Assembly (NCBI GenBank): GCA_963665325.3
Contig: CAXXWS020000002.1
Span: 416,001-480,000 of the forward strand
DNA length: 64,000 nt
Source: Alphaproteobacteria bacterium
GTDB taxonomy: Bacteria > Pseudomonadota > Alphaproteobacteria > Bin95
Direction: 5' to 3'
The position numbers were made by a program, and so were the translations under genes. Below the pieces are notes generated by a model. The model was not told where the DNA came from. It saw only the letters and a list, made by a program, of their open reading frames with translations, and made no database searches. Shown here piece after piece: positions 12,461 through 64,000 of this stretch. Every line of letters starts with the position of its first letter. Positions within the stretch are counted from its first letter, which is position 1.

Positions 12461-12486
12461 TGCCGGTCCTTTCCCTTTTTCGATGC

Positions 12487-40913: not shown

Positions 40914-40939
40914 GGCAAGAACAGCCGGAGGAGGAAACG

Positions 40940-41774: not shown

Positions 41775-41872
41775 GCAGGCCGCCGCGCAGGCAAGCACCG
41801 CCGTCTCCGGCAGCAGAACCGACTTCAGCAAATAAATGCAATTTGGGGCCGTCACCTACAGGGAGCACTCCC

Positions 41873-42538
41873 ATGCCCGACCGTTCGCATTCCACCCCCG
41901 ACATCCTCGCCTTCGTCAGCCAGAAGGGAGGGGCCGGCAAGACGACGCTGGCGCTCAATGTCGCCGCCCATGCCGTCCAGGCCGGGCGCCGGGTCACCGT
42001 TCTCGACTGCGACCCCAATTGCTCGGCCGTCATCTGGGGCGACCTCCGCTCCGAGGCCGCGCCCGAGGTCCGCTACTGCCCCTATCTCCGGCTTGAGAGG
42101 GAGATCGACCGGGCCCGGACGAAGGGTTCGGACTTCATCCTGATCGACACGCCGATGGGCGCGGACGGAGGCCCCGTCGCCGGGGCGCGCCATGCCAACC
42201 TGGTGGTGGTCCCCTGCCGGCAGTCTCTCTTCGACCTCGCCGCGATCCGCGCGAGCCTCGATGTGGCCGCGCTAGCCGGCACGCCGGCCGTCGCGGTGCT
42301 GAATGCAGTCCCGACGCGGGCCGCGCACTGGGAGAGCGAGGCGAGGGACCTGCTCGCCGGCCAGGGGGTGCAGATGCTGCCGGCCGCCATCCGCAACCGC
42401 GTCGCCTTCGTGCGCTCGTCCCGCACCGGCCAGGGCGTCGTCGAGTCCGACCCGCGCGGCGCGGCCGCCAACGAGATCCGCGCCGTGGGCGACGCGCTTC
42501 TCGCCTGGCCGGTCCGCGCGCTCAGGGCCGCCGCATGA
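41873..42538 (+). CDS. parA: ParA family ATPase
   Basis: SQKGGAGKTT, LDCDP, LIDTP. Confidence 0.9.
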   Translation: MPDRSHSTPDILAFVSQKGGAGKTTLALNVAAHAVQAGRRVTVLDCDPNCSAVIWGDLRSEAAPEVRYCPYLRLEREIDRARTKGSDFILIDTPMGADGGPVAGARHANLVVVPCRQSLFDLAAIRASLDVAALAGTPAVAVLNAVPTRAAHWESEARDLLAGQGVQMLPAAIRNRVAFVRSSRTGQGVVESDPRGAAANEIRAVGDALLAWPVRALRAAA

Positions 42539-47132: not shown

Positions 47133-47234
47133 GTGCGTCTTGCCGGCTATGCCCCGAAGGAACGCCGCAGCCCGTTGCCGCCCCGCGCGCGCGGGGCCAG
47201 AGCGTCCCGTCTTTCGAAACCCGAAGGACGGGAC

Positions 47235-49307: not shown

Positions 49308-49418
49308 AGCGCCGCCAACCATAACCTCCTCGCCGCGCCGCCGGTCGCTGCCCCGGCAACCCCGGAGCCGGAAATGTCCGGGGCGCCTCGGGAGGGCCAG
49401 GAAGAGGGAGGCGGCGCC

Positions 49419-50447
49419 ATGCGTGGCGATCCAGCGCCAACACACAGCCTGAAGGACCTGAACGCCTTGCTGGCGGCCGATATCGAGGCCGTTTGCCGAC
49501 ATTACCTTCCGAACGGGAAGCGCAACGGCAACTACTGGCAGGTGGGCAGCACCGCCGGCGAGGAGGGCGCCTCGCTGCGCATCAACCTGTCCGGGCGCTG
49601 GCGTGGACGCTGGAGGGACTGGGCCAACCCGAAGGACCGGGGCAGCCCCCTCGACCTGATCCGCGCCGTGCGCAACTACGCCAGCATCGGGGAAGCGGCC
49701 GCCGAGGTGCGCCGCTACCTGGCGCTTCCGGCATATGAGCGGCCCCGGTGCGGTCCCCGCCGCCCGGACGGCGCGCCGGAGGCGCAGACGGGCCTGGAAC
49801 GGGTGCTCGAGGGCGCGAAGACGATCGGGGCAGACGACCCGGCCGGGCGTTATCTCGCCTCGCGCGGCCTCGCCATAGAGGACGCCCGCGCCGCCGGGCT
49901 GCGCTTCCGCCCCGACACCTGGGTCCAGGTGGACGGCAAGAAATGCGAGCTGCCGGCCCTGCTCGCGCCGATCCGCGCGCTCGACGGCACGCTGGAGGGC
50001 CTGCAGCGGATATTCCTCGCCCCGGACGGAAGCAAGGCCTCGATCCCGGACCCGAAACGGACCAGCGGGCGGCTCTTCTCCGGCGCCGTGCGCTGGCCCA
50101 TGTCCGGGGCGAGCCGCATGGTGCTGACCGAGGGGATCGAGGACGCGCTCGCCGTCATAAGGGCACTCGGCGCCGGCCGGCCTCACGATATCGCCGTCGC
50201 GGCCGCGATCTCCGCCGGGCGCGTCCACCGCGTCGGCCTCTCCCCGGACATCCGGCGCGTGACGCTCGTCCAGGACCGCGACATGGCGGGCGAACAGGCA
50301 TGGGTCGCACTCTGCCGCGAGCATGGAGGCTCCGCCCTGCTGCTCGACCGGATCATTCCCGGCAAGAAGGACGCCAATGACGAGCTCCTCGCGCTCGGCC
50401 CCGCCGGGTTCCTGGCGAGGCTCGCGGCCCAGGGACTGTCCGGCTGA
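49419..50447 (+). CDS. Toprim-domain primase-like protein, paralog 1
   Basis: YLPNG...GRWRDWA; YLASRGL; TEGIEDAL; QDRD; KDAND. Confidence 0.82.
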   Translation: MRGDPAPTHSLKDLNALLAADIEAVCRHYLPNGKRNGNYWQVGSTAGEEGASLRINLSGRWRGRWRDWANPKDRGSPLDLIRAVRNYASIGEAAAEVRRYLALPAYERPRCGPRRPDGAPEAQTGLERVLEGAKTIGADDPAGRYLASRGLAIEDARAAGLRFRPDTWVQVDGKKCELPALLAPIRALDGTLEGLQRIFLAPDGSKASIPDPKRTSGRLFSGAVRWPMSGASRMVLTEGIEDALAVIRALGAGRPHDIAVAAAISAGRVHRVGLSPDIRRVTLVQDRDMAGEQAWVALCREHGGSALLLDRIIPGKKDANDELLALGPAGFLARLAAQGLSG

Positions 50448-50618
50448 CACGGGGGCTGCAGGGCCACCGCCGCGCACGCCGCAGCCCTCCCGCCGGCGCC
50501 TCCGTTCCCGGCCGGCCGCCGGAAGTTGGGGAAGGGGTTGCCGAGGTATCGATGCGGGCGCGGCTTGCTTCCGGCCCGTTCCGATCCCATACTCCCCAAC
50601 GGACAGGAGACGAGGCAC

Positions 50619-51161
50619 ATGACCTCTCCCGAAACCCCTTCCCCGGAACCGCAGCGCAGCATGTTCGGCATCGGTGACGGCAGCTGGAAGGCGATGATCC
50701 CGGCCGCCACCGTGCTCACCTTTTTCGTGCTCTTTCTGGTCGGGATACTCGGCTGGTTCGACAGTCGCATCGACGGGGTCGAAATGCGCCTGACCGCCCA
50801 GATCGTCGAGGTGAAGGCGGATCTGACGAACCGGATTGATGAGGTTAAGGCAGACCTCAGAGCAACCGAGACTCGCCTGTCCGACCGGATCGACCGGGTC
50901 GAGACTCGCCTGTCGGACCGGATCGACCGGGTAGAGACCGATCTCGGCACCCGCATCGACGGGGTGAAGGCGGAACTGGCTGCGAGCGAGGCGCGCCGCG
51001 CGGCCGTGGATGCGCAGCTTTCCGCCGATATCGAGCAGGTCTCCGCCGGTGTCGCGGAGAACCGGGCCGCGCATCGCGAGCTCGCCGGCTTCGTGCGCGC
51101 CAGCCGCTCGCAGGAGCCGCCTCCGGCGAGCGACCGGCCGGGTCCCGCACCGCCGCAGTAG
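50619..51161 (+). CDS. Membrane-anchored coiled-coil protein with 11-aa repeats
   Basis: One TM helix, then ETRLSDRIDRV x2 (33-bp tandem repeat 50868-50933); AGGAG RBS. Confidence 0.75.
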   Translation: MTSPETPSPEPQRSMFGIGDGSWKAMIPAATVLTFFVLFLVGILGWFDSRIDGVEMRLTAQIVEVKADLTNRIDEVKADLRATETRLSDRIDRVETRLSDRIDRVETDLGTRIDGVKAELAASEARRAAVDAQLSADIEQVSAGVAENRAAHRELAGFVRASRSQEPPPASDRPGPAPPQ

Positions 51162-51287
51162 CCGCACGCACCCCATAGCCGGCGCCGTTTTCGCCCCTTC
51201 CCGGCCCAAGGTCGGGAAGGGGTTTTTCGTGGCGATCCGCGCGGGCCGTCCTGTTCGCGCGTCCCTCCACGACAGGAGACGCTGCCC

Positions 51288-52580
51288 ATGCCCGGCGCGC
51301 CGGCTTCCGTCCCTCGCGACACGCATCAACCCGCCGAAGCGGCGGACTGCAACTGCAACAGCGGCAAGTCCGCGGACGCTACGCCGCCCGTCCGTTCATA
51401 TTCCTGGCACGCGCGGCGCCGGCTCGCCACGCGCGGCCTCTGCCTGAACTGCGGCCAGGTGCCCCCGGCGGACGGCGCGAAATACTGCTCCGGCTGCATC
51501 GAGCGCCGCCGCGCCAGCGACCGCAAGGCCGCCCGCAAACGCCGCCTGCTGCGCCGTAACCGCGGCCTCTGCGCAGAGTGCGGCGCCGTGGCCGAAAAGC
51601 CCCGCCAGCGGCTCTGCGAGGCCTGCAACGACAAACACCGGGCCGTGAGCCGCCGGCGCCAGCAAGACCGAAAGGAAGAACGGAAGCGGGCAGGCCTGTG
51701 CGTACAGTGCGGAGGCAGGGCGCCGGCCGAAGGCAATGCGAGCTGCGACGACTGCCTCGCCCAGCGCCGGCTGGCATACCGCGTCCGCATCGACCGCCGC
51801 CGGCGCCAGGGCGACCGTTCGCTCTGCATCGAGTGCGGCAAGGCGCCCCCGGCTCCCGGCCGCCGCCGCTGCCCGGACTGCCAGCCGCTCACCGCCGGGC
51901 GCGACAGGGACGCCGCCAGACACCGCCGGGAGGCCCGCCGCTCTGTCGGCCTCTGCACAGTCTGCGGGCAGCATTCCGCCGTCCGCGGACGCACGGCCTG
52001 CGAGGCCTGCCTCGCGGGCTGGCTTGACCAGTACAACCGCAAGACCCTGGCCCGCGTCGCGCAAGGCCTTTGCATCCGGTGCGGGAAAGAGCCCCCGGCA
52101 ACCGGGTTCACCGCGTGCGAGCCCTGCCGGGACAGCCACCGCGCCGCCAGTCTTGCGAAGTGGCGCCGGCGCACTGCCGAACGCCGCGCCATGCAGCGCT
52201 GCATACGCTGCGGCGAGGATCTCGCCGACGGGGAGCAGGAGGTCTGCGAGCCCTGCCGCGACACCCAGCGCCTGAGCGCGCGCCGGCGTGCCGACCGCCG
52301 CAAGGCGCTGGGCGTCTGCGTTCGCTGCGGGCGGCGCCCCGCCGGGCGAGGAGCGCGCGACTGCGGCCCCTGCCGCGACCGCCAGCGCGCCTACGCCTGG
52401 CGCGGCATGCCCGACCTGCCGCCCCGCTACACCGTGATCGAGATCGCCACCGGCACCGATCACGGCACCTGGGAAACCGTCCAGGAGGTCGCGGGCGCGC
52501 TCGCCTATGCGAAGCTGACGCTCGACGACGTCGAGATCCTGACCGACGCCGCGCCCATGGCCGCCTTCAGGAGCTGGTGA
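51288..52580 (+). CDS. Tandem C4 zinc-finger repeat protein 1 (8 repeats plus conserved C-terminal domain)
   Basis: 8x GLCxxCG-x11-CxxC plus Arg-rich helix; AGGAG RBS. Confidence 0.85.
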   Translation: MPGAPASVPRDTHQPAEAADCNCNSGKSADATPPVRSYSWHARRRLATRGLCLNCGQVPPADGAKYCSGCIERRRASDRKAARKRRLLRRNRGLCAECGAVAEKPRQRLCEACNDKHRAVSRRRQQDRKEERKRAGLCVQCGGRAPAEGNASCDDCLAQRRLAYRVRIDRRRRQGDRSLCIECGKAPPAPGRRRCPDCQPLTAGRDRDAARHRREARRSVGLCTVCGQHSAVRGRTACEACLAGWLDQYNRKTLARVAQGLCIRCGKEPPATGFTACEPCRDSHRAASLAKWRRRTAERRAMQRCIRCGEDLADGEQEVCEPCRDTQRLSARRRADRRKALGVCVRCGRRPAGRGARDCGPCRDRQRAYAWRGMPDLPPRYTVIEIATGTDHGTWETVQEVAGALAYAKLTLDDVEILTDAAPMAAFRSW

Positions 52581-52715
52581 CGCCGCCTCGCATCCCCTTC
52601 CCGGTCCCCGGCAGCCGCAACGCCGCCAAGGTCGGGAAGGGGTTGTTCGTGCGATCCGCGCGGGTCCGCCATTGGCAACCGCCCGCGCCCGTTTCCCGAT
52701 CAGGAGATATCGCAC

Positions 52716-53027
52716 ATGCCCGGCATGCCCGTTTCCGTCCTTCGCCCCGATGCGAACACCTTTCTGACGCACGTCTTCGGCCGCGGCCTCCAGGACAAGA
52801 CCTATGTGGTCGAGCGCTACCGCACCGGCATCGACGGCGAGATCCGGCGCCTGCCGGGCGGCAGGGGCCATCCGCTCACCCTCTCGCTGGCGACCGTCCG
52901 GGAGCTGCGCCCGGCGCGCAACGAGATCCTGATCTGCCGGTGCGAGAAAAAGCCGGACTCCGGCATCCAGTACTGGGGGGTGTGGGCGACCGGGCTCTTC
53001 GCGGAGGGCAGGCGCAAGGGGCGCTGA
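52716..53027 (+). CDS. Hypothetical protein
   Basis: AGGAG RBS, GC3-biased, preceded by the motif. Confidence 0.7.
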   Translation: MPGMPVSVLRPDANTFLTHVFGRGLQDKTYVVERYRTGIDGEIRRLPGGRGHPLTLSLATVRELRPARNEILICRCEKKPDSGIQYWGVWATGLFAEGRRKGR

Positions 53028-53137
53028 GGCGTTCACGCTCCGGCGCCTCGGTTCTCCCCTTCCCGGTCAGCAAGGTCGGGAAGGGGTTTTTCCTTCCGAA
53101 CCCGCCGTCGCTCGCTTTCCAGTCGTCAGGATCCGCC

Positions 53138-54322
53138 ATGGCACCGAGCCGCACCACCCAGCTGCGCCACGCCCGCCGCGAGGCAGGCCTTTGCCAGGAA
53201 TGCGGACAGGTCCCCCCGGAGGGCAACTCCACGCACTGCGCCGCTTGCAGCCAGCGCCGGCGCGAAAACAGGCGCCGGTCCCAGCAAAAGCGCCGCATGC
53301 GTCTTCGCGAACGCCTGCTCTGCCTGGACTGTGCCAAAGCCGCGCCCGAGCCTGGCCGCGCCCGTTGCTCTTCCTGCGCCGAAACGCACCGCACCGCCAC
53401 CAGGCACACCAACCGGCTCCTCCGCGAAACCCGGCTCAAGGCCGGCCTCTGCCGCCAATGCGGCCAGAAGCCTGCGGCGCCCGGCAATGCCACCTGCGAC
53501 GACTGCCTTGCCGCGCGCCGCCAAGCCTACCGCGCCAGCACCGCCAGGAAACGCCGCCGCACTGACCCCTCTGTCTGCCTTGACTGCGGCAACAACTCTG
53601 CGGCCCCCGGCAAACCCCGTTGCCCCGCATGTGTTCGTCTCGCCGCCAGGGCCCTCCGCGACCGGCTCCGCGCGGCCGGCATCTGCACAACGTGTACGGC
53701 ACGCCCCGTCACCGACGGTCACACCACCTGCGGTCACTGCCGGGACGCCAATCTCGCCTGGTTTCACCGCGAACAGGGCCGCCGCAAATCCGAAGGCCTC
53801 TGCCGCAAGTGCGGGCAGCAACCTCCCCTTGCGGGATTCACGCTCTGCCTGCCATGCCGCGAGAAGAGCCGCTTCGCTGGCCATGCGACCTGGGTCCGGC
53901 AAACGACGGAACGCCTGACATGCGGGTTATGCGTGCGTTGCGGGCAACATCCCGCTGCGGAGGGCGTCCGTGAATGTCCCGCTTGCCGTGAATACTCCCG
54001 CTCACGGGCGCTGGCCTATTACCGCCGAACGTCGTCCGAACGAAAGGCGCTGGGCCTTTGCGTCCGTTGCGGCAGGCGGCCCCCCGAACGCGGCACGCTC
54101 GACTGCGGTCCCTGTGGCGACAAGCAGCGCGCCCGCGAGTATCGCGGCATGCCCGACCTGCCCGACCGGTACACCCTGATCGAGATCGCGACCGGAACCG
54201 ATCACGGCACCTGGGACAACCTCCAGGAAGTCGCGGGCGCGCTGGCCTACGCGAAGCTCACGCTCGACGACGTCGAGATCGTCACCGACGCCGGGCCCAT
54301 GGCCGCCTTCAGGAGCTGGTGA
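53138..54322 (+). CDS. Tandem C4 zinc-finger repeat protein 2 (8 repeats plus conserved C-terminal domain)
   Basis: Paralog of 51288-52580; true start probably MAPSRTT after the motif. Confidence 0.85.
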   Translation: MAPSRTTQLRHARREAGLCQECGQVPPEGNSTHCAACSQRRRENRRRSQQKRRMRLRERLLCLDCAKAAPEPGRARCSSCAETHRTATRHTNRLLRETRLKAGLCRQCGQKPAAPGNATCDDCLAARRQAYRASTARKRRRTDPSVCLDCGNNSAAPGKPRCPACVRLAARALRDRLRAAGICTTCTARPVTDGHTTCGHCRDANLAWFHREQGRRKSEGLCRKCGQQPPLAGFTLCLPCREKSRFAGHATWVRQTTERLTCGLCVRCGQHPAAEGVRECPACREYSRSRALAYYRRTSSERKALGLCVRCGRRPPERGTLDCGPCGDKQRAREYRGMPDLPDRYTLIEIATGTDHGTWDNLQEVAGALAYAKLTLDDVEIVTDAGPMAAFRSW

Positions 54323-54426
54323 CGCCGGCCCCATCCCCTTCCCGCCCCGGCAGCCGCATGGCCGCCAAAGGTCGGGAAGGGGCTTGTCGAGGGTGACTGC
54401 AAACAGCCACCCGGAGGACATATCCG

Positions 54427-54693
54427 ATGCCCGAGCCCGCCCCCTCGATGCGCACGTTCCGGATCGACGGAATCGGCCATGCCGGCGAGACCCTCGACAC
54501 CTGGTTCGTCGAGGCCCCCTGTTCCCGGCAGGCGCTGTCCCGCCTCTCCGAGAGCCTGGCGGACCGCGCCGAAACCGCCGGCTGGCGCCTCTACACGCTC
54601 CAGTACTGCGCCGATATCCGCATCGACGAAGTCGACGCCGCGCTGGCGTCCCCCGGCGCTGCCGCCTATATTCCGCAACAGGGAGTCGCCTGA
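54427..54693 (+). CDS. Hypothetical protein
   Basis: GGAGG RBS, preceded by the motif. Confidence 0.7.
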   Translation: MPEPAPSMRTFRIDGIGHAGETLDTWFVEAPCSRQALSRLSESLADRAETAGWRLYTLQYCADIRIDEVDAALASPGAAAYIPQQGVA

Positions 54694-54696
54694 TCC

Positions 54697-55065
54697 ATGG
54701 CCATGACCGCATTCGAAACCGCCACGCTGGCATTCCAGAAGGCGACCGTCGCTTTCCAGGAATCCACCATGCGGTTCCAGGAATCCACTATCGGATTCCA
54801 GAACGCTTCCCTCGAGCTGCAACGCGACGGTCTCTATCTCCAGGAGGCCGCCATCTACGTCCAGGCCGGCGTCGGCCTTCTTCAGGCTGCCCTGATCGGC
54901 TACGGGCTCTGGATGATGCACCGCGCGTCCACGGACCGGAACCGCCTCATGGACGAAGAACGTGTTCGCGCCGATCGGCGACATGAGGAAGCCATGACCG
55001 CCCTCAAGGAGCTGATCGCGCGCACGGCGTCCCCCTCCTCTCCTCCCGGCGCCAGCGCCGCTTGA
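54697..55065 (+). CDS. Heptad-repeat membrane protein
   Basis: AFETATL/AFQKATV/AFQESTM/RFQESTI/GFQNASL, then a TM helix. Confidence 0.65.
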   Translation: MAMTAFETATLAFQKATVAFQESTMRFQESTIGFQNASLELQRDGLYLQEAAIYVQAGVGLLQAALIGYGLWMMHRASTDRNRLMDEERVRADRRHEEAMTALKELIARTASPSSPPGASAA

Positions 55066-55198
55066 CCCGCCGGGCGTTCTTCGCCCCGCATCTCCTTCCC
55101 TTCCTGCCCGTTCCCGGCCGCTGCGGCATTCACGCCGCAAAGGTCGGGGACGGGTTTTTCGGGTGGTGCCAACCAGTTCCACCGAAAGGGCTTGAGCG

Positions 55199-55552
55199 AT
55201 GCAGCACATGAACGAGACCATCCGCAGCGTGCTGGCCGCGCACGGCATCGAGCGAAGATTCGCTGTCCTGCTCGCGGACCACGCAAGCAGCAATTTCAAC
55301 GAGCATTCCTACCTGGTCGAGTGGCCGGGCGAGCTCGGCGGCGCGCTCGTCTACCGGAGCGAGGAGGCCTGGCGAGCCGCCGCGGGCGACGACGCCTCCT
55401 GCTTCGACCTCTGGCCCTGGGCCGTCGAGGAAGTCTGCACCGATTACATGTACGCGGCGATGTACGAGGCCGGAATGTTCGACGAACACGGCGAGGTGGC
55501 GGAGGACTGCCCCCAGCGCGAAGCGGCGATCCAACTCTGCCTGGGCAACTGA
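55199..55552 (+). CDS. Acidic hypothetical protein
   Basis: GC3-biased ORF preceded by the motif. Confidence 0.7.
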   Translation: MQHMNETIRSVLAAHGIERRFAVLLADHASSNFNEHSYLVEWPGELGGALVYRSEEAWRAAAGDDASCFDLWPWAVEEVCTDYMYAAMYEAGMFDEHGEVAEDCPQREAAIQLCLGN

Positions 55553-55682
55553 CCGGTCCGGCATTCCGGTCGGCGCTTCCCCATCCCCGGCCTTTGCGGC
55601 ATCGACGCTGCGAAGGTGGGGAAGGGGCTTTTCGCGGTGAGTTCGAGCAACTCGCAATCAACCAGTTGCAGGGAGCAACACC

Positions 55683-56102
55683 ATGAACGGCCTGAACCGC
55701 GTCGACCTGATCGGCAACCTCGGCGGCAACCCCGAGATCCGGACCATGCAGAACAGCAGCGAGGTCGCCAATTTCTCCATCGCCACCAACGAGGTCTACA
55801 AGGACCGCCAGACCGGCGAGTACAAGGAGCTCACCGAGTGGCACCGGATCGTCGTCTACCAGCAGGGTCTCATCGACATGCTGAAGAAGCACGGCGAGAA
55901 GGGCCGCCTGGCGCACATCACCGGCAAGCTGCGCACCCGCAAGTGGACGGACCGCGACGGCAACGACCGCTACTCCACCGAGATCGTGGTCGGCCCCCGC
56001 GGCTGCATCAACTTCCTCGACCCCAAGCGGGACGGGGCGGGGAACGGAAACCGTCCGCCGGCGCCGCCCCCGGAAGCCTATCAGGACGATTTCGCCGCCT
56101 GA
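55683..56102 (+). CDS. ssb: Single-stranded DNA-binding protein
   Basis: NRVDLIGNLG.NPEIR, TEWHRIV, GKLRTRKW.DRDG.DRYSTEIV. Confidence 0.95.
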   Translation: MNGLNRVDLIGNLGGNPEIRTMQNSSEVANFSIATNEVYKDRQTGEYKELTEWHRIVVYQQGLIDMLKKHGEKGRLAHITGKLRTRKWTDRDGNDRYSTEIVVGPRGCINFLDPKRDGAGNGNRPPAPPPEAYQDDFAA

Positions 56103-56115
56103 GCGAACGCCCCCC

Positions 56116-56150
56116 AGCCCCGGAACCCGAGGGTTCCGGGGCTTCTTCCT
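56116..56150 (+). terminator. Intrinsic terminator after ssb
   Basis: AGCCCCGGAACCC/GGGTTCCGGGGCT followed by TCTTCCT. Confidence 0.7.
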
Positions 56151-56406
56151 TGTACGCTCAGCAACGTCCCGGGGCCCGCCTCGGCGCGTTTTTTCGTTGC
56201 CCCCGTCCGCGGGTCCCCCGCACTTCGGTGACCTCCGTCTTCCCGGGCTGGGCCCGGAAGGGATGGCGGAACGCGGCCGCTCTTTGCTGATCGCCGGAGC
56301 GCCGCCCCGGTCCGGAGAAGGTGGGGAAGGGGTTTTCCGGGCGGCATTGCGGGCCTCGCTCCTGCTTGCCCTCGTGCTACAATCCCCCACAGAAAGGAGC
56401 TGCACC

Positions 56407-56664
56407 ATGACCGCAGCCGATCTCGCCCCCTGGACAACGCCCGCGATCACCATCGCCCTCATCGCCTGGCTCCGCATGGACCTCGGCAAGCGCATCGACC
56501 GTCTCGAGGAGCGAATGGACCGGCGCATCGACGGCATCAACGCGCGTCTCCGTGCCCTGGAAATCGCCGTCGGCGCCATGGCGGCCAAGCTCGACCTGCT
56601 CGAGCGCTACTTCCTGCGGCCGAACGAGCCTCTCGACAAGCCGTCCCCGGAAGCGTCCGAGTAG
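56407..56664 (+). CDS. Small membrane-anchored coiled-coil protein
   Basis: AAGGAG RBS; short TM, then RIDRLEERMDRRID. Confidence 0.7.
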   Translation: MTAADLAPWTTPAITIALIAWLRMDLGKRIDRLEERMDRRIDGINARLRALEIAVGAMAAKLDLLERYFLRPNEPLDKPSPEASE

Positions 56665-56674
56665 CTTCCCCCTG

Positions 56675-56700
56675 ACCCCGGCCTCCGCGCCGGGGTTTTT
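56675..56700 (+). terminator. Intrinsic terminator
   Basis: ACCCCGGC/GCCGGGGT followed by TTTT. Confidence 0.65.
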
Positions 56701-56945
56701 CCATTCCGACGATCCAGCGCCTCGGGCCCCGCCCCCGGGGCGCTTTTTCGTGCCCCCGTTCCCGGCCTGCCCGTACTGCCGGGCGTCCCGCATGCCGGGC
56801 GCTGGCCGGGAAGCGTTCTGTGCGGCCGGCCGTCGCCCATCAGCCGCCGTCGTGCCGGCCGCGAGGCAAGAAAGGTGGGGAAGGGGTCTGTCGGGCGGTA
56901 TCGCGGCCATCCCGGTCGCGACCGCAGCCCGAAAGGATTTTCGGA

Positions 56946-57122
56946 ATGACCGTTCTGCTGGACCTCGCCTTCGACGCGATCGACGATCGCCACGCCGTCG
57001 CCGAGCTCGGACTCGATGCGCTCCCCCTCCGCGACAGCGTCCTGGAGGACAGCCTGCCCCGCTGGGGAGACCAGGCGACCCTGTTCCCCTGGGAGCCCGA
57101 TACCGCCGGAGACGCCGGCTGA
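56946..57122 (+). CDS. Small acidic hypothetical protein (58 aa)
   Basis: AAGGA RBS, preceded by the motif. Confidence 0.55.
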   Translation: MTVLLDLAFDAIDDRHAVAELGLDALPLRDSVLEDSLPRWGDQATLFPWEPDTAGDAG

Positions 57123-57747
57123 ACCCTGTCGCCCCGATGCCCCCCGGCGTCGGGGCGATCGTTCTGTACCGGCTCACCGCCGCGGCCCCCCGGTCCGTGC
57201 CTATATGCCTGCCGGCAGTCGCTTCGCTCCGGTAGCGGCATCGTGGGCGGGGATGGCCGGTCCGGAGCCGGGCCGCATCGAACCCGCCGTCCGGTCGCAG
57301 GCTCCCTCCCGTCACGTCCGCTGCTGACCGCCCGGTTCCAGACCGGCTGCGGGGACGCCGGGCCGCGACCGCCGCGCCGGGCGGGCTTCGCCCTTCCCCC
57401 CGTCACGCCGCCCGCTTGAGGCCCGGCTTGAATCTGAAATCGACACCCTCGCTGCGCTCGCCCGGCGCAGGCGCCGGATGAGGGCCGCTTCGCGCCCTGG
57501 CGGAGCGTGCTGCGCACGCGGGAGGCCGGTCGTGGCCTTCGGCATGCCGGGGGCGCTGCGCTGTGACCCCCCGGCAGGCCGAAAGCCGTTGGTGGGGGGC
57601 AGGGGCAGCCGGAGGCATGGCGGCATGGGGAGACCTGGAAATGCAACCCGCGACCTCGGGCAGGCCTGGAAAAGGTGGGGAAGGGGTTGTTCGGGTGGAT
57701 TCGCGGCCAATCCGGTCGGCGACGGTGATCCGGAAGGAGGATCGGTC

Positions 57748-58776
57748 ATGGCGGTCATGCATGGAGGCATTTCGCTGCAGGAGCTGGCAGCGCGGCTGGC
57801 GACCGAGATCGAGGCGGTCTGCGCCTACTATCTGCCGAACGGCCGGCGTGACGGCCCGTTCTGGCAGGTGGGCAGCGTCGCGGGCGAGCCCGGCAGCTCG
57901 CTGCGCGTCAATCTGGCGGGCCGGCTGCGCGGGCGCTGGAAGGACTGGGCGAACGGGCGGGATCGCGGCGACGCGCTGGACCTGATCCGCGCGGCCCGGG
58001 ACCTGGCGTCGGTCGGCGAGGCCGCGAAGGAGGCCCGGCGCTTCCTGTCCCTGCCCGATGCCGAGCGCCCGGCTTCGGTCGTGTCCGTTGCGGCATGCCG
58101 GCCGGTGAACCGGGCGGGCCTGGAGCAGGTGCTGGCCCGTTCGCGCGCGATCTGCGCCGACGACCCGGCCGGGCGCTATCTCGCCTCGCGCGGGCTGGCG
58201 GTGGACGACGCGCGGGACGCCGGCCTGCGGTTCCGGCCCGACGCCTGGGTGCAGGTGGACGGGCAGAAGCTGGAACTGCCGGCCCTGCTGGCGCCGATCC
58301 GCGCGCCGGACGGGACGCTGGAGGGCCTGCAGCGCATCTTCCTCGCCCCGGACGGCGGGAAGGCGGCGATCGCGGACCCGAAGCGGACCAGCGGGCGGCT
58401 CCACTCCGGCGCCGTGTGGTGGCCTGCTGCCGACGATGCGCGGCACGTGGTGCTGACCGAGGGCGTGGAGGACGCGCTCGCGGTCCGCCGGGCCCTGGGC
58501 GCGCATGGCCGCCGGCATATCGCCATCGCGGCTGCCGTGTCCGCCGGGCGCATCCCGCAGGTCGCCCTGCCGCCCGGCACGGTGCGGGTCACGCTGGTGC
58601 AGGATCGGGACCGCGCGGGCGAGGAGGCCTGGGCCGCGCTGGTCAACAGGCATGCCGGCCCGGATGTGCTGGTCGGGCGCCTCGTCGCCGGCGCGAAGGA
58701 TGCGAATGACGACCTCCTCCGGCTCGGCCCCGCCGGATATCGCCGGCTGCTGCTCTGCGGGGGCCTGCCGGCCTGA
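57748..58776 (+). CDS. Toprim-domain primase-like protein, paralog 2
   Basis: Colinear with 49419-50447 (TEGVEDAL, QDRD, KDAND); AAGGAGG RBS. Confidence 0.82.
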   Translation: MAVMHGGISLQELAARLATEIEAVCAYYLPNGRRDGPFWQVGSVAGEPGSSLRVNLAGRLRGRWKDWANGRDRGDALDLIRAARDLASVGEAAKEARRFLSLPDAERPASVVSVAACRPVNRAGLEQVLARSRAICADDPAGRYLASRGLAVDDARDAGLRFRPDAWVQVDGQKLELPALLAPIRAPDGTLEGLQRIFLAPDGGKAAIADPKRTSGRLHSGAVWWPAADDARHVVLTEGVEDALAVRRALGAHGRRHIAIAAAVSAGRIPQVALPPGTVRVTLVQDRDRAGEEAWAALVNRHAGPDVLVGRLVAGAKDANDDLLRLGPAGYRRLLLCGGLPA

Positions 58777-59008
58777 GCCACGATGCCCGGCGCCATCGGC
58801 GTCGGGCATCTGTTGCGTACCGGTCCGGGGCGCAGTTGGCGCCGGCCCCGCCGCGCCGTGGCGGTGGATGGCCGCGGAACGGGCCTGGAAGGGAATGGCG
58901 GGGCGTTCGGGGGATTTCGGCTGCCCGTACGCGCCGGGGCCGGCCGATGCGGCCGGGAGAAAGGTGGGGAAGGGGCTGTTGGGGTAAATCCCGAACAGGA
59001 GAGAGACG

Positions 59009-59266
59009 ATGAACGGCGACGCATACTGGACCGTGGACATCCTGCTGCCCTACTACACCGGCGGGCAGCGCTGGCGGGTCGTGCATGGCGGCGGGAGCGA
59101 GCAGCTCGCCCGGCGCATGCTGGACGCGGAGCGCCGGAACGGCAACCGCGCGCGCCTGCGCTGCTGGACAGCCGAGGTCGTGGACGCCGATGAGGTGCAA
59201 GACCTCGCCGAAGCGGTCCCCGTTCCTCAGCCTGCCGACCGGCTGGACAACGCGGTCCCCTTCTGA
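59009..59266 (+). CDS. Hypothetical protein ending in ...DNAVPF
   Basis: AGGAG RBS, preceded by the motif. Confidence 0.7.
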   Translation: MNGDAYWTVDILLPYYTGGQRWRVVHGGGSEQLARRMLDAERRNGNRARLRCWTAEVVDADEVQDLAEAVPVPQPADRLDNAVPF

Positions 59267-59273
59267 AGCAGAG

Positions 59274-59306
59274 AGCCCCGGCGCCTCCGGCGCCGGGGCT
59301 TCTTCT
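59274..59306 (+). terminator. Intrinsic terminator
   Basis: AGCCCCGGCGCC/GGCGCCGGGGCT followed by TCTTCT. Confidence 0.7.
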
Positions 59307-59587
59307 ATGTACCGCTCCGGCGGCCTCCTCCCGGGCGGCCGGGAGACCGGCTCCGCTATCCGGAACCCTGGCGGGGCCTCCGCAGGCTCCGGCCCCGCCA
59401 GGAACCCGGAAGACTGCGCCTGGAAGTTCCTCCTGACGGCGACGTCTGGCGCAAGCGCCAGGTCGCTTCGCTCCCGGGCCGGGAAGGAGGAATGCTGTCG
59501 GCCGGCGCTTCGGCGGCGAAATCCAAAAGGTAGGGAAGGGGTTGTTCGGGTGGAATTGCGGTCAATCCCGGCCGCGATCGCGAAGAG

Positions 59588-59932
59588 ATGGAGACAGCGA
59601 TGTCGATTCCCGCCAACCGGGCCCTCGTGCCGTTCCGCCCGTTCCTGATCGTCCGCGTGGCCGAGTTCGATGACGAGCCCGCCGAGATCCGCACCGCTGC
59701 CAGCCGCGAGGACTGCGAGCGCGCCCTGTTCGACTGGATCGAGGAGAGCGTCGTCCCCAACGAGATCTCCGGCGGGTCCTTCAATCCCGGTGAGGGCTGT
59801 TACACCTTCGCCGCCAGTGAATATGGCGAGCTTCGCCACCAGCGGACCGAACGCCCGGACGGAGGCTGCCACTTCGGTCCCTGGGCCGAAGAAGCCCGTC
59901 CCGCCGCCGGCAACGACCCGTGGCCGTTCTGA
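59588..59932 (+). CDS. Acidic hypothetical protein ending in ...NDPWPF
   Basis: Preceded by the motif; possible alternative start at 59600. Confidence 0.7.
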   Translation: METAMSIPANRALVPFRPFLIVRVAEFDDEPAEIRTAASREDCERALFDWIEESVVPNEISGGSFNPGEGCYTFAASEYGELRHQRTERPDGGCHFGPWAEEARPAAGNDPWPF

Positions 59933-59940
59933 TCCCGATC

Positions 59941-59970
59941 GCCCGGCGCCGAAAGGCGTCGGGCTTTCTT
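59941..59970 (+). terminator. Intrinsic terminator closing the motif-regulated array
   Basis: GCCCGGCGCC-GAAA-GGCGTCGGGC followed by TTTCTT. Confidence 0.7.
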
Positions 59971-60139: not shown

Positions 60140-60370
60140 TGAGGTATGCCCTGGAGAATGTCGAGAAAATAGGTTGGCACACCTGTGCACCCAGGTGCAA
60201 TTCAAACTATCAACAATTTCAACGACTTATCCGGTCGATGAAATTCGGAAGGCGCGGCACACGGAACCCGGAGGACCAGCCGCCCGGTGGATGTATCCGG
60301 GGAGCACCGATCGCATGCTCCGATCGGCCATTCCTGCGCTTGCCTGTTACGTGAACACTGGGCCCTGACG
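60140..60370. other. Candidate oriT/relaxase promoter region
   Basis: AT-richer non-coding stretch directly upstream of the relaxases; inverted repeat CACCTG..CAGGTG near 60178-60197; nic site not identified. Confidence 0.4.
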
Positions 60371-61627
60371 ATGGTAGCGAGGATCACCAAACTGACGAAA
60401 CCGGACCTCTATGCCGGACGCAGGGCGCCCTGGACCGGCAAATGGCGCAACCCGTCAGGCCTGCTGCATCTCGCGGACGGCGGCGCCGTTTCCGACAGGG
60501 ACTTCCTTTCCCTGTGGAGGGGGTTCGCGCCCGGAGACGGCTGGCCCCTGTCGCGCCGCGCCCTCAGCCGGACCCACATGCCCGGCTTCGACATCGTGCT
60601 CTCGCCCGACAAGTCGATCTCGGCGCTCTGGGCCATCTCTCCGGAGTTCGACCGCAAGCGCATCGAGCGCACGGTCATGGACGCGGCCGGGATCGCGATC
60701 ACCCGCACGGTCTTCCGGCATTGCGCTGTCACCCGGGCCGGTACGTCCGGCAGGAATTTTCAGGTTGAGACCGGCGACATCCTGGTCGCGATCTTCCCGT
60801 TCCACATCTCCCGCGAACTCGATCCGCAACTGGACGTCAGCTGCGCCATCTTCAATTTGGTGCAGACGCACCGGGACCTGAGGTTCCGGACCCTGCACGC
60901 CTATCCCCTGTATTCCTGGCAGAAGGCCATCGGCGCCACTTTCCGGAGCCGTTTGGCGTATCGGTTGCGCAGCCGCCTCAGCATCGGGATGGAACGGCAT
61001 GGCGAGCAAGGCGAATACACCCGCATCCGGTGCATGGACCCCGGCCTCGAAGAGTTCTGGAGCAAACGGAAATCAAAGTTGTTGGCCAGTCGGGCAAGGA
61101 AGACAATGCCCGACCCGACATCCCTCCACGGCGCCCAATCATCGAGTGCGCCTCTGCGGATCAAACGCACGGCGATCGACGCTGACACGGCCAGGTTCAG
61201 GGATGAAGCAGCCGCATTCGTCGATCCCGATGCCCTGCATACACGGATCGTCCGGTCCGCATCCAATGACGTGACTGAACGCCAGCACGACAGCGTCCGC
61301 CGGGAGATCGACGACATTCCCCGCACGCTCGCCGCGTCGGACCTGGTCTTCAACACGGCCGACATCGTCGCCCGGGTGGAGAACGCCGCCGGCGGCCTGT
61401 TCGACGACGACGCCATGGACGGGTGGCTCGAATTCGCCCTGGCCGCCGACAACCTGCTCCCGCTGGACCATGAAGACCCGAACCCCGACGCCGTCGCCGG
61501 CATGGCCCACAAGCGCCTGTTCACGACCCGTGACATCCTGGACGCCAACCCGGATCACAAGCGGCTTTCCGGCCTCAGAGTTGCGCCTCTACAGCCGGAA
61601 GCACCCACGGAGCCTTCGCGGTGGTAG
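60371..61627 (+). CDS. Degenerate MobF/TrwC relaxase-domain protein (predicted catalytically inactive)
   Basis: PGFDIVLSPDKSISALWA; SRELDPQLDVS in place of SREGDPQLHVH; YY..YY cluster absent; no helicase. Confidence 0.8.
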   Translation: MVARITKLTKPDLYAGRRAPWTGKWRNPSGLLHLADGGAVSDRDFLSLWRGFAPGDGWPLSRRALSRTHMPGFDIVLSPDKSISALWAISPEFDRKRIERTVMDAAGIAITRTVFRHCAVTRAGTSGRNFQVETGDILVAIFPFHISRELDPQLDVSCAIFNLVQTHRDLRFRTLHAYPLYSWQKAIGATFRSRLAYRLRSRLSIGMERHGEQGEYTRIRCMDPGLEEFWSKRKSKLLASRARKTMPDPTSLHGAQSSSAPLRIKRTAIDADTARFRDEAAAFVDPDALHTRIVRSASNDVTERQHDSVRREIDDIPRTLAASDLVFNTADIVARVENAAGGLFDDDAMDGWLEFALAADNLLPLDHEDPNPDAVAGMAHKRLFTTRDILDANPDHKRLSGLRVAPLQPEAPTEPSRW

Positions 61628-64000
61628 CGACGATCGCCAAGATGGCCGTGCCGTCCTACTACATCGAGAGCCAGGCGGCGCATGAGGGCTACTACACGGG
61701 CGGCGGCAAGGAGCGCCCGGGCGAGTGGTACAACCCGACCGGCCTCTTCCGTCTGAAGGATGGCGGCCTCGTCTGGGAGAAGAAGTTCTACGCCCTCTGT
61801 GGCGGCCGGTCGCCGGAACTCGACGGCACCGACCTCGTGCGCAATGCCGGCTCGGAGAAACGGTCGCCCGGCTTCGACATCACCTTCTCGGCCGACAAGT
61901 CGATATCCGCGCTCTGGGCGGTCTCGCCGAGGGCGGAAGACCGCGAGAAGATCGAGCGCGCCGTGATCGACGCCGCGCGCTGCGCTCTCGACGAGACCGT
62001 GTTCAGGCATTGCGCGACCACGCGTGTCGGCAAGTCAGGCGTGGATCTCCGTATCGAGACCGGCGACATGCTGGCGGCGATCTTCCTCCACCGCACGTCG
62101 CGCGAGGGCGATCCGCAGCTGCACGTGCATTCGACGATCTTCAATGTCGTCAAGACGCACTCTGACGGCAAATACCGCGCCCTGCACGGCTATCCGCTCT
62201 ATTCCTGGAAGAAGGCCGCAGGCGCGGCGTTCCGGGGCCATCTCGCCCACATCATGCAGGAACGCCTCGGCATCGCCATGGAGCGGCACGGGCCCGAGGG
62301 CCAGTACAGCCGCATCCGCGAGATGGACGGCGATCTGGAGCAGTTGTGGAGCAAGCGGCGCGCCCAGCTCGTTGCGACCGTTGCCGAACATCTGGGCGAG
62401 GAAGCGCTCGCCAACCCGGCCCAGATGGCCGCCGCGACGCTTGCAACCCGTTCGCGAAAGCCCGAGGGCGGTCCCTCGACGGAGGAAGACATCGAGCGCT
62501 TCCTGGAGGAGGCCGCTGAACTCGTCGATGTCGCGGAACTCCGGGACCGCATCCGCAATGCCGGGATCGAGGAGCTCACCCACGAGCGCATCGCCGAAAT
62601 CCACGACGAGATCGTCGCGATCCCGGAGAAGCTCGCGCGGATGGAGGCCGTCTTCAATGTCCCGAACATCATGGAGAAGCTCGAGAACGCACTTGCCGGC
62701 GCCGTCGACCGCGAGGCCATGCAGCGCTGGCGCGAGGTTGCGCTCGGGAATGCCGAGCTGGTCTCCCTCGAATATCCGGAGCCCGCCATCGAGGCCCAGG
62801 CCGGCATGGCGCACAAGCAGATCTTCACCACGAAGGAAACGCTCCGCGCCGAGCGCACCCTGCGCCACATCTCCGGCCTCTCGGTTTCGGACCGCACCCA
62901 CGCCGCCGATCCGGACAAGGTCGCGCGGCTCCTCGAGGACCTCGGCAACCGGGGCAAGCGCTTCAGCGCCGAGCAACGCAGGGCCATCCAGTACGCCGCG
63001 GCGGACTCCGGGCGGATCGCCCTCATCGAGGGGGCGGCCGGCGCCGGCAAGTCCCACGTGCTGGGGCCGCTCGCGGACCTCTGGCGCGCCGAAGGCTACA
63101 AGGTGCGCGCACTCGCGGTCGCCTGGTCGGTCGCACGCGAGCTCGCCAGCGACATCGACGCGCCGCCGAGCGCCGTCCATCCCTTCCTGAAGGACGTCCA
63201 CAAGGGCGCCGTCAATGTCGGCCCCGACACCGTCCTGGTCGTGGACGAAGCCGGCATGCTGTCGACGCGCCAGACGCTGCAGCTCGCCAGGCTGAGCGAG
63301 GAGACCGGCTGCAAGCTCCTGCTGGTCGGCGACACGCAGCAGCAGCAGCCGATCGAAGCCGGGCCGGGCATGCGCATCGTCAAACAGCGCGTGAAGGGCG
63401 TGCGCATCGACCGCATCCGCCGACAGCTCCCGACGGTCGAGGACTATCTGCGCGAGATCGTGGGCCTGCCGGCTGAAGAAGCCATTGCGACGGCGGCGCC
63501 GATGACCCGCGAGGAACGCGACGCCGCCAGCAAGCGCTACACCGCCATGCGCCGCGAACGCCGGGCGGCCGGCGAGGAGCCCCTCTCCATCAAGCGCCCC
63601 TGGCAGCTCGGCGTATCGGCGCTGCTGCGCACGGGCGCCATGCACCAGGCGTTCATCGAGATCCACAAGCGCGGCCGCTTCACGCTGGCCGAAGGCAAGG
63701 AAGACGCGCTGCTCCGGCTCGTCGCCCACTGGTCCGCCTGGATGGCGGAGAACCCGGAGGGCGAGGCCGTCGTCATGGCGCGCACCCGCGCCGACGTGCG
63801 CGCGCTGAACGCCCTGCTTCGCGCCCGGCACCACGGCGCGAACGCACCGCCCGACTACAATCCCGCGACGGACTCCGCCGTCATCCGGATCCACCGCTTC
63901 CGCGACCGGGGCAAGGCCGTGGAGGACGATTTAGAGGTCCGCATCGGCGACCGCCTCCGGATCGGTGCCACCGTCTCCCGGCTCGGCCTCTACAACCGCG
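61621..64000 (+). CDS. MobF (TrwC/TraA-type) relaxase-helicase, partial
   Basis: Manual translation MVATIAKMAVPSYYIESQAAHEGYYTGG, PGFDITFSADKS, HRTSREGDPQLHVH, IEGAAGAGKS, VVDEAGM. Confidence 0.92.
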   Translation, partial: MVATIAKMAVPSYYIESQAAHEGYYTGGGKERPGEWYNPTGLFRLKDGGLVWEKKFYALCGGRSPELDGTDLVRNAGSEKRSPGFDITFSADKSISALWAVSPRAEDREKIERAVIDAARCALDETVFRHCATTRVGKSGVDLRIETGDMLAAIFLHRTSREGDPQLHVHSTIFNVVKTHSDGKYRALHGYPLYSWKKAAGAAFRGHLAHIMQERLGIAMERHGPEGQYSRIREMDGDLEQLWSKRRAQLVATVAEHLGEEALANPAQMAAATLATRSRKPEGGPSTEEDIERFLEEAAELVDVAELRDRIRNAGIEELTHERIAEIHDEIVAIPEKLARMEAVFNVPNIMEKLENALAGAVDREAMQRWREVALGNAELVSLEYPEPAIEAQAGMAHKQIFTTKETLRAERTLRHISGLSVSDRTHAADPDKVARLLEDLGNRGKRFSAEQRRAIQYAAADSGRIALIEGAAGAGKSHVLGPLADLWRAEGYKVRALAVAWSVARELASDIDAPPSAVHPFLKDVHKGAVNVGPDTVLVVDEAGMLSTRQTLQLARLSEETGCKLLLVGDTQQQQPIEAGPGMRIVKQRVKGVRIDRIRRQLPTVEDYLREIVGLPAEEAIATAAPMTREERDAASKRYTAMRRERRAAGEEPLSIKRPWQLGVSALLRTGAMHQAFIEIHKRGRFTLAEGKEDALLRLVAHWSAWMAENPEGEAVVMARTRADVRALNALLRARHHGANAPPDYNPATDSAVIRIHRFRDRGKAVEDDLEVRIGDRLRIGATVSRLGLYNR

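Follow-up and report, generated by a model that had tools for sequence, protein, structure and literature searches.

A near-invariant 32-nt motif ahead of every unit of a putative conjugative leading region: a candidate promoter/operator that may double as half of upstream terminators

It has been worked out for few plasmids how expression of the first genes to enter a recipient is turned on, namely for F and ColIb-type plasmids with their single-stranded DNA (ssDNA) promoters, for IncN plasmids with CUP and ArdK, for p576 and for pLS20. Here we describe what may be a compact solution from an uncultured alphaproteobacterial lineage, contained in a 64,000-nt stretch of DNA (Alphaproteobacteria bacterium, lineage Bin95; assembly GCA_963665325.3, contig CAXXWS020000002.1, positions 416,001 to 480,000). 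This whole stretch is called the window, and positions are counted from its first letter. In a mobile element within it, a near-invariant element of about 32 nt stands ahead of every unit of an array of small genes (50619-59932), beside a putative origin of transfer (oriT), and in many copies it also forms the 3' arm of a hairpin. Position and gene content, that is, gene order, suggest that a conjugative element has its leading region here, the genes being directed toward oriT, as they are in F. We put at roughly one in two (about 0.5) the probability that the motif is the common promoter/operator of a leading-region regulon and doubles as the 3' half of the terminators of upstream genes.

Repeated regulatory sequences in front of establishment genes are already known, and the dual promoter/terminator layout, though neat, is not unprecedented. 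In the part of the p576 account drawn on here (PMC6294495), dual TTATCCC heptamers lie at four promoters and the ribbon-helix-helix (RHH) protein Reg576 is the repressor. Its EGeRS2 resembles the array in that a short motif recurs, unit by unit, at the promoters of clustered, co-oriented establishment units, and the logic proposed for both is de-repression on entry. The motif of the array is likewise asymmetric and roughly a direct double (AAGGtGGGG / AAGG-GG). However, the two motifs are unrelated in sequence. The array yielded neither an RHH repressor, such as has been identified for p576, nor the clear sigma-A -35/-10 boxes of that plasmid; p576 has a Gram-positive host and shows no overlap of its motif with terminators. 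In the pLS20 family, conserved GC-rich sequences with several inverted repeats (EGeRS1) lie directly upstream of each establishment operon, according to the sections used of PMC8708921. Gene content is mosaic between relatives there as here, and the hairpin-free module of the array (about -75 to +55) is similar in character; EGeRS1 is, however, 420-750 bp long, where the array has a core of 32 nt and a long module of about 130 nt, and the transferred strand of pLS20 is given as the non-template strand whereas the geometry of the array suggests the opposite. In IncN plasmids, CUP conserved sequences upstream of several leading-region genes are bound by one plasmid repressor, ArdK, in the excerpted account of PMC6289460. 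The placement ahead of several leading-region genes is shared, but CUP and the array motif have unrelated sequences, and no gene resembling ArdK turned up here. Delver and Belogurov reportedly described in 1997 that CUP elements end at start codons and promote gene capture.

The Frpo/ssi elements of F, ColIb-P9 and pESBL are described, in the parts of PMC11541004 and PMC12672017 drawn on, as large stem-loops that rebuild -35/-10 boxes. Like the array, they lie as hairpins in the leading region, upstream of ssb and of early genes oriented toward oriT. In contrast, the hairpins of the array are 29-50 nt long, hold no such boxes and are absent from 6 of 12 motif copies in the window and from 51 of 83 overall. 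No similarity to known Frpo/ssi was found. Among 72,556 plasmid records, megablast of the 10-kb block gave no match, a distant blastn search matched ssb only and the 130-nt spacer matched nothing; an Rfam scan of 37-64 kb, with E up to 1, returned no family apart from a chance snoRNA match. A literature search, which cannot match sequence strings, turned up no published description of the motif. What is new is the sequence, the host lineage, the density of one motif per unit and the bases shared with a terminator.

One motif per transcription unit

The 15-mer AAGGT[C/G]GGGAAGGGG, followed by a T-rich tail, occurs 12 times with at most two mismatches, always on the plus strand and always in intergenic DNA, between 50523 and 59541. 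The minus strand of the 64-kb window holds one match at this threshold, within a chromosomal gene. With up to three mismatches there are 23 matches as against 2.6 expected, a count reached by none of 100 shuffles (largest 8). The rest of the 64 kb, window 1-50 kb included, holds no copies beyond chance. Every one of the 12 intergenic spacers between 50448 and 59599 (104-625 nt) carries a single copy, so placed that the start codons of the 12 transcription units (50.5-59.6 kb) follow 48-96 nt later. The sole gene junction without a motif is the 3-nt gap within the two-gene unit 54427-54693 and 54697-55065, whose genes have one motif in common. An initial annotation of this DNA had noted AAGGT as conserved just inside the right arm of hairpins, and it is intact in 11 of the 12 copies (AAGTT at 50523).

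To place the motif among relatives, species-representative genomes were scanned with the toprim protein of the element, which gave 20 loci, 13 of them close (65-94% identity) and seven distant. All 13 close loci come from alphaproteobacterial metagenome-assembled genomes (MAGs), some of which carry at least three copies of the element. Each close locus holds 2-13 motif copies, 102 on the plus strand and 14 on the minus strand in all, and the core stays near-invariant even where toprim identity is 65-67%. Outside the array, the related loci hold no copies beyond chance. The seven distant loci hold none, and no analogous repeats were found in distant loci L014, L015, L017, L018 and L020. After dropping copies less than 70 nt from a locus start or less than 60 nt from its end, and collapsing identical 130-nt segments, 83 distinct copies remained. 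Their consensus of about 32 nt, aAAGGT[C/G]GGGAAGGGG-YTKTYCGGG-nGrAWYY, is conserved beyond the pattern that was searched for: position 0 is A in 56 of the 83, position 17 is T in 71, positions 22-24 are G in 63-70 and position 28 is A in 42.

Hairpin copies and free copies

The hairpins that the initial annotation had built from the motif and a complementary left arm are real. Arms CCCCTTCCCG / CGGGAAGGGG pair at 51194/51213, 52594/52633, 53056/53077 and 54335/54373. At 55107/55145 both arms change together (CCCGTTCCCG / CGGGGACGGG, one C-G to G-C flip and one T.G wobble), and at 55576/55616 they do so again (CTTCCCCAT / GTGGGGAAG), where a G-C pair opposite motif position 6 has become C-G and pairing at the outer end is weaker. 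The outer stems measure 10-13 bp at full extension. The loops of about 9-31 nt in that annotation hold as spans between the 10-nt arms but not as loops, the terminal loops of the 48-49-nt hairpins being 3-6 nt; its inner stems in these longer hairpins are present as a second helix of the GCGGC..GCCGC type. Folded as plus-strand RNA and compared with dinucleotide shuffles, copies 51208, 52628, 53072, 54368, 55140 and 55613 score z -2.0 to -6.7, and the remaining six (50523, 56318, 56872, 57672, 58961 and 59527) z -0.26 to +1.35. Thus copies from 56318 on show no significant hairpin, as had been proposed for the later copies, and several of their spacers do contain separate classical terminators (Table 1). 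As minus-strand DNA, five of the six window hairpins are stable (z -2.3 to -4.25); copy 55613 is stable as plus-strand RNA (z -2.87) and not as minus-strand DNA (z -0.33).

Across the relatives, a copy was counted in the hairpin class when 11 or more of its 13 right-arm bases were paired upstream in the minimum free energy (MFE) structure of -110..+15 and the hairpin was no longer than 55 nt. By this definition 32 of the 83 distinct copies form hairpins of 29-50 nt, and the other 51 keep the right-arm sequence free of one. A MAFFT alignment of the hairpins left several left arms out of register, and an alignment fitted to a covariance model was better, if still imperfect; for this reason the per-copy MFE structures were set beside the formal pair count. 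In these structures the right arm is almost wholly paired, and a handful of two-sided changes can be seen. Position 6 is G-C in 27 hairpins, C-G in four and unpaired in one; position 12 is C-G in 28 and G-C in three; the wobble G.T at position 5, present in 24, is bettered to A-T in three and to G-C in one. An inner helix occurs in 25 of the 32, in 19 distinct sequences, and GCGGC-ATCGAC-GCCGC is common to two-tier hairpins of unrelated cassettes. The covariance model recovers 26 two-tier hairpins at E <=1e-11 (22 distinct rows) and matches nothing in L014-L020. In the model-fitted alignment of the 22 distinct rows, 87.5% of cells pair, as against 38-60% with slid partners. Changes on both sides affect 2 of 19 pairs (10 cells), a level reached by 12 of 500 shuffles, and the covariation term of RNAalifold is merely -0.64 kcal/mol. 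Compensatory changes therefore do exist, but the covariation is weaker than had been claimed, and the support for the hairpins is mostly kept complementarity.

The position of the hairpins points to the preceding gene. In the window they begin 12-41 nt after stop codons of co-oriented genes, and the T-rich tail follows them on the plus strand only. At least five T in the 8-nt tail are found in 14 of the 32 hairpin copies but in just 3 of the 51 free copies (nominal Fisher p = 5e-5), and 18 of the 32 have at least four. Several tails (TTTTTCG) match those of classical terminators in T-richness, and a terminator scan lists 51193-51223 and 53056-53086 beside the classical sites, likewise for their counterparts in related locus L001. 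By rough gene calls, the median distance from the upstream stop codon to the motif is 61 nt for hairpin copies and 191 nt for free copies, and another terminator-like site is present for 3 of the 32 and 29 of the 51, respectively. The hairpins thus resemble intrinsic terminators of the upstream gene, with a GC-rich stem-loop and then a T run on the sense strand, and may act as such. They differ from ordinary terminators in a 3' arm that is near-invariant across unrelated genes and also occurs without a 5' arm, and in that 14 of the 32 tails are T-poor.

The two classes also differ in sequence. At position 6, 27 of the 32 hairpin copies have C and 39 of the 51 free copies have G, and the consensus of the free class extends on as GGGYGGAATYGCGG. 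A second, degenerate box C[CGT]GGAA[GCA], with peaks at -64 to -67 and -47 to -52, accompanies 33 of the 51 free copies and none of the 32 hairpin copies, so that the free module reads: degenerate box, GC-rich hairpin without a T run, motif, conserved leader. Gene-specific leaders begin directly after the motif in both classes, and the AA of AAGGT never varies, although its two bases are left without a partner in 21 and 19 of the 32 hairpins. Long spacers seem to hold a decayed hairpin unit ahead of the free motif, because in 56755-56813 a left-arm-like sequence, CCCGTTCCCGGCC (56755-56767), pairs with the degenerate box GGCCGGGAAGCG (box match 56807-56813). An attenuator working by alternative pairing in the long spacers was considered and rejected, the distal left arm fitting the nearer degenerate box (C variant) and not the main motif (G variant).

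Hairpin and motif come apart at one position in the relatives. After gene family F0, the hairpin of L004, L005, L011 and L012 reads CCCCT[T/C]CCCGGC...GCCGGGGAGGGG + TTTTT; the model also matches there in L006 and L013, whose stretch is near-identical, and the case thus covers six related loci from four MAGs. Pairing and T run are kept, via T-A to T.G to C-G with a compensating left arm, and AAGGT, the core GGGAAGGGG and the core AA have gone; 199-308 nt further downstream, ahead of the following gene, stands a free motif copy. This is suggestive of two constraints that a merged hairpin and motif obey together and of which, once apart, each keeps only its own. The earlier view that both structure and sequence are under selection holds to this extent, but the constraints are separable, as this hairpin and the 51 free copies indicate, and do not describe one folded signal.

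A candidate establishment regulon and the alternatives

In the reading that we favour, the motif in front of each of the 12 units would be a shared promoter and/or operator beside the putative oriT, and the units would make up an 'establishment regulon', transcribed by host RNA polymerase in concert with one common candidate factor, be it a repressor, an activator or an alternative sigma factor. Where genes are tightly packed, a left arm complementary to the motif would lie upstream of it, and RNA read from the gene before would fold with the G-rich core and T-rich tail as the 3' half of an intrinsic terminator. Long spacers would instead have an ordinary terminator of unrelated sequence behind the gene, leaving the motif on its own, with the second degenerate box and a hairpin upstream. 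The left arm would follow the right arm, whose sequence would be fixed by its function as promoter/operator, and one would then expect well-kept complementarity and rare true covariation. Both the conserved length of about 32 nt and the place ahead of the genes would suit a promoter. Because two tandem strong terminators (56674-56744) precede copy 56872, transcription must start anew there. A common promoter/operator whose bases also serve as the 3' half of a terminator accounts for more of the data than the four mechanisms put forward in the initial annotation, namely an ssDNA promoter, a primase initiation signal, a folded recombination site and a terminator subject to antitermination; for the last of these, nothing was found.

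If this is true, one element per unit would make each small gene an insulated, separately exchangeable module. It would also provide a defined cis-element with which to find the trans factor and a simple marker for establishment regulons in metagenomes, and about 12 small proteins without a family, together with two multi-zinc-ribbon proteins, would become candidates for establishment or anti-defence functions.

Several points weigh against the promoter/operator reading. A search with the E. coli consensus gave no sigma-70-like site on either strand of 46-64 kb of the window or of L001 1-13 kb, and no match of the motif to any other sigma consensus could be demonstrated. No regulator emerged, the eight small array open reading frames (ORFs) having no helix-turn-helix, RHH or other match in Pfam, PHROGs or NCBIfam. 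The upstream hairpin and second box of the free copies are not accounted for, and 14 of the 32 hairpin tails hold just 2-3 T in 8 nt, so that those hairpins may terminate poorly. The comparison of the two strands is ambiguous: across the 32 copies the plus-strand fold is the more stable in 20 and the minus-strand fold in 11, and the hairpins contain 43 G.U pairs as against 10 A.C mismatches, the latter mostly in one subfamily. The separation of hairpin and motif comes from one orthologous position in one sub-lineage, and the copies are related by descent, which makes the p-values nominal.

Other identities for the motif were tried and set aside. Compared by eye with consensus sequences, it showed no consistent fit to sigma-54 (GG-N10-GC), to an extracytoplasmic function (ECF) promoter (GGAAC-N16-CGTT), to the alphaproteobacterial LexA box (GTTC-N7-GTTC, of which the first half alone fits) or to the Caulobacter -10 element (GCTANAWC, 5/7 in some copies). 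A Chi-like protection site would be correctly oriented for an enzyme that comes in from the oriT side and was ruled out by the fixed intergenic position and the length of 32 nt; for a G-quadruplex, the C variant has too few G tracts.

We consider it unlikely that the hairpins act instead on the transferred single strand after entry, be it as small ssDNA promoters, as start signals for the toprim primase-like proteins or as roadblocks to complementary-strand synthesis. Gene order suggests the minus strand as the transferred one: the succession of array, putative oriT and relaxase, all on the plus strand, would make it both transferred strand and template, as in F (by extension from the part of PMC11541004 drawn on). 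Five of the six window hairpins are stable as minus-strand DNA too, the plus-strand A.C mismatch of one subfamily is a G.T on the minus strand, which folds better, and the array region has two primase-like genes and ssb. For F, the ssDNA promoter hairpin is reported, in the portion used of bioRxiv 10.64898/2026.01.09.698686, to be a replication roadblock. This reading leaves unexplained the many copies without a hairpin (6 of 12 in the window, 51 of 83 overall), the four long spacers in which the motif is unpaired when folded as minus-strand DNA, the copy at 55613 that folds on the plus strand only, and a T run 3' of the hairpin on the plus strand only. The oriT repeat is, moreover, plausible on either strand, the transferred strand being a deduction from gene order, and a priming site would have no need of a constant position ahead of start codons. 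An ssDNA promoter in particular fits poorly, since hairpins of 29-50 nt have no -35/-10 boxes to rebuild and a search with the E. coli consensus gave no sigma-70-like site on either strand.

Equally improbable, in our view, is that only the hairpin-free G-variant copies are promoters and that those with hairpins act at the RNA level between cistrons, as leaky terminators, stabilisers or processing sites, inside a single long transcript, which would run from the 50523 copy to the strong terminator after ssb. The sorting of variants by class (position 6) would suit such a transcript, as would the 50523 copy, a free G variant that heads a run of hairpin copies, the first classical terminator (56116), which appears only past ssb, and the hairpin tails with 2-3 T. 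However, mere RNA hairpins need not keep a largely unpaired AAGGT and an exact core, and both are lost where a free copy lies downstream; several hairpin tails equal classical terminators in T content, and gene-specific leaders begin right past the motif in both classes.

A third possibility, very unlikely as we see it, is that the motif, with or without a hairpin, is a recombination site for the exchange of cassettes between elements, integron-like and possibly acting on folded single strands. The order of genes between copies does vary, ssb following different genes in the window, L003 and L004. Moreover, 44 cross-locus pairs of copies are alike in one flank (9-mer similarity >0.35) and not in the other (<0.03), with all placeable switch points within motif positions 1-25, and a large serine recombinase lies upstream of the array in 9 of the 9 sources that reach there (the window, L002, L004-L006, L009-L011 and L013). 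Diverged copies of the element coexist, three or four per MAG (L001, L002 and L009 on one contig; L004, L005, L006 and L013 in one assembly), which gives ample opportunity for the exchange of units between copies. In its fullest and equally doubtful form, the motif units would be the joints of an exchange system for leading-region (establishment/anti-defence) genes, each travelling with a leader of its own between flanking motifs; inverted-repeat forms would fold in the entering single strand and be recombined there in the manner of attC, with other sequences and another enzyme.

Since the motif is the sole sequence common to unrelated cassettes and elements coexist, ordinary homologous exchange is the simple reading and yields the same junctions. 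The junctions do fall in the motif, as a folded recombination site would have it, but not at one fixed point, and hairpin-free copies take part in them. The attC sites of integrons are defined by RYYYAAC/GTTRRRY cores. Like the array units, they are imperfect inverted repeats that vary in length and mark cassette boundaries in DNA with a single-stranded stage. The arms CCCCTTCCCG/CGGGAAGGGG differ from this core, the cassettes of the array carry their own leaders and many of their boundaries lack an inverted repeat; integron systems, in the portion of the literature drawn on, have promoterless cassettes and a tyrosine integrase. No tyrosine recombinase was found among the window ORFs scanned, in which the sole recombinase is the serine enzyme (47133-48824), more simply taken as the element's own integrase.

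More improbable still is a REP- or MITE-like origin, in which the units would be a selfish or relic extragenic repeat with no function of their own: the inner helix GCGGC-ATCGAC-GCCGC, common to unrelated cassettes among the 19 distinct sequences of 25 helices, points to spread by duplication, but such a repeat would hardly show the strict orientation (102 plus, 14 minus), the confinement to one block of about 9 kb at one per unit and 48-96 nt from the start codon, the absence from 50 kb of flanking DNA, and the near-invariant core where toprim identity is just 65-67%.

The mobile element around the array

Ordinary metabolic genes fill window 1-37.8 kb, and the mobile element extends from about 38.9 kb onward, so that only about 25 kb of it lie within the window. 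Its left end (38949-43599) carries a replication-initiator-like gene (654 aa), with weak matches both to DnaA N-terminal and to phage O-like families, followed by ParA and a ParB-like gene. This end directly abuts the chromosomal metabolic genes with no tRNA nearby, a tRNA scan having found none, and the element may be an integrated or co-integrated plasmid. Further genes encode a DUF5131 protein, an SNase-domain protein, the large serine recombinase (47133-48824) and a toprim/DUF7146 primase-like protein (49374-50447).

Table 1. Features of the array and its surroundings (positions in the window)
Feature	Position	Strand	Evidence
Motif-served array, 13 genes in 12 units	50619..59932	+	gene calls and family scans
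Motif copy 1 (AAGTTGGGGAAGGGG, 2 mismatches), 96 nt to ATG 50619	50523..50537	+	z +1.35, no significant hairpin
29-nt hairpin, 13-bp stem, loop CAA; 3' arm is copy 2 (51208-51222); tail TTTTTCG; begins 32 nt past stop of gene 50619-51161	51194..51229	+	z -3.24; terminator-like in scan
49-nt two-tier hairpin with copy 3 (52628-52642); tail TTGTTCG; begins 13 nt past stop of Cys-rich gene 51288-52580	52594..52649	+	z -2.71
31-nt hairpin with copy 4 (53072-53086); tail TTTTTCC; begins 28 nt past stop of gene 52716-53027	53056..53093	+	z -4.63; terminator-like in scan
48-nt two-tier hairpin with copy 5 (54368-54382); weak tail CTTGTCG; begins 12 nt past stop of second Cys-rich gene 53138-54322	54335..54389	+	z -2.04
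48-nt two-tier hairpin with copy 6 (55140-55154, AAGGTCGGGGACGGG); tail TTTTTCG; C-G to G-C flip	55107..55161	+	z -6.69
Hairpin with copy 7 (55613-55627, G variant); tail CTTTTCG; left arm changed to match	55576..55634	+	z -2.87
Classical terminator-like hairpin after ssb, sequence unrelated to motif	56116..56143	+	terminator scan
Hairpin-free module: box CCGGAAG (56254-56260), intervening hairpin, copy 8 (56318-56332)	56254..56332	+	z +0.66
Two tandem classical terminator-like hairpins (56674-56697, 56716-56744) after gene 56407-56664	56674..56744	+	terminator scan
Hairpin-free module with copy 9 (56872-56886); second hairpin at about 56817-56866	56755..56886	+	
Copy 10, hairpin-free, at end of 625-nt spacer, 76 nt before toprim start 57748	57672..57686	+	z +0.46
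Hairpin-free module: box CTGGAAG (58885-58891), intervening hairpins, copy 11 (58961-58975; shortest distance to ATG, 48 nt)	58885..58975	+	
Classical terminator-like hairpin after gene 59009-59266	59273..59301	+	terminator scan
Hairpin-free module: box CGGGAAG (59480-59486), copy 12 (59527-59541, AAGGTAGGGAAGGGG)	59480..59541	+	
Classical terminator-like hairpin after last array gene (59600-59932), beyond last motif copy	59941..59964	+	terminator scan
Putative oriT inverted repeat CACCTG-N6-CAGGTG	60180..60197	.	AT-richer spacer ahead of relaxase genes; function inferred
TrwC-domain-only gene (60371-61627) and TrwC relaxase/helicase (61621 to window end)	60371..63999	+	family scans

Within the array are two Cys-rich multi-zinc-ribbon paralogues, ssb (55683-56102), a toprim/DUF7146 primase-like gene (57748-58776) and at least eight small ORFs without any family. 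The Cys-rich proteins (51288-52580, 430 aa; 53138-54322, 394 aa) each consist of about nine CxxC...CxxC zinc-ribbon units with Arg-rich stretches between them and have in common a C-terminal domain of about 60 aa (MPDLP.RYT.IEIATGTDHGTW...). The first gave a sub-threshold match to the double-zinc-ribbon family DZR_2 in Pfam (18.4 bits; cut-off 27 bits) and no PHROGs, NCBIfam or PDB match; the second had no match in Pfam, the sole database scanned for it. The element has two toprim/DUF7146 paralogues, the one at 49374-50447 standing just ahead of the motif array and the other within it. The toprim protein matches 383 alphaproteobacterial plasmid records, all below 60% identity (36.5-39.5% among the 15 matches listed), and in one plasmid region with such a match, on M. 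nodulans pMNOD01, the layout differs. The second toprim gene is preceded by a GC-rich non-coding spacer of 625 nt (57123-57747), which far exceeds every other spacer of the array and resembles other modules in its last 150 nt only. An 85-aa protein is encoded beside oriT; it has just 16 homologues, all of this lineage, and no PDB match.

In the ssb leader, AATCAACCAGTTG at 55659-55671 fits the consensus for integration host factor (IHF), WATCAANNNNTTR. This IHF-like sequence is retained in the ssb leaders of L001 and L002, and those of L003, L004 and L012 retain AATCAACC and diverge after it.

The putative oriT repeat has counterparts with compensatory arm changes in L003 (CACCAA/TTGGTG, at about 6040-6075) and L004 (CACCG/CGGTG, at about 12085-12145), and reads plausibly on either strand. 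In the window its core is followed by GGTGCAA and then by a conserved (A)ATTTCAAC; a further inverted repeat, of 12 nt, occupies 60215-60245, and the remaining spacer is not conserved as DNA. The TrwC-domain-only gene beyond it (418 aa, MobF family) overlaps the start of the full TrwC relaxase/helicase, so that relaxase domains occur twice in tandem; related loci encode a large relaxase of 2115-2160 aa. In L001, the spacer before the relaxase (about 12290-12500) holds about 19 tandem 11-nt units (AAAGTCTGGTC), iteron-like, in place of the oriT-like repeat of the window.

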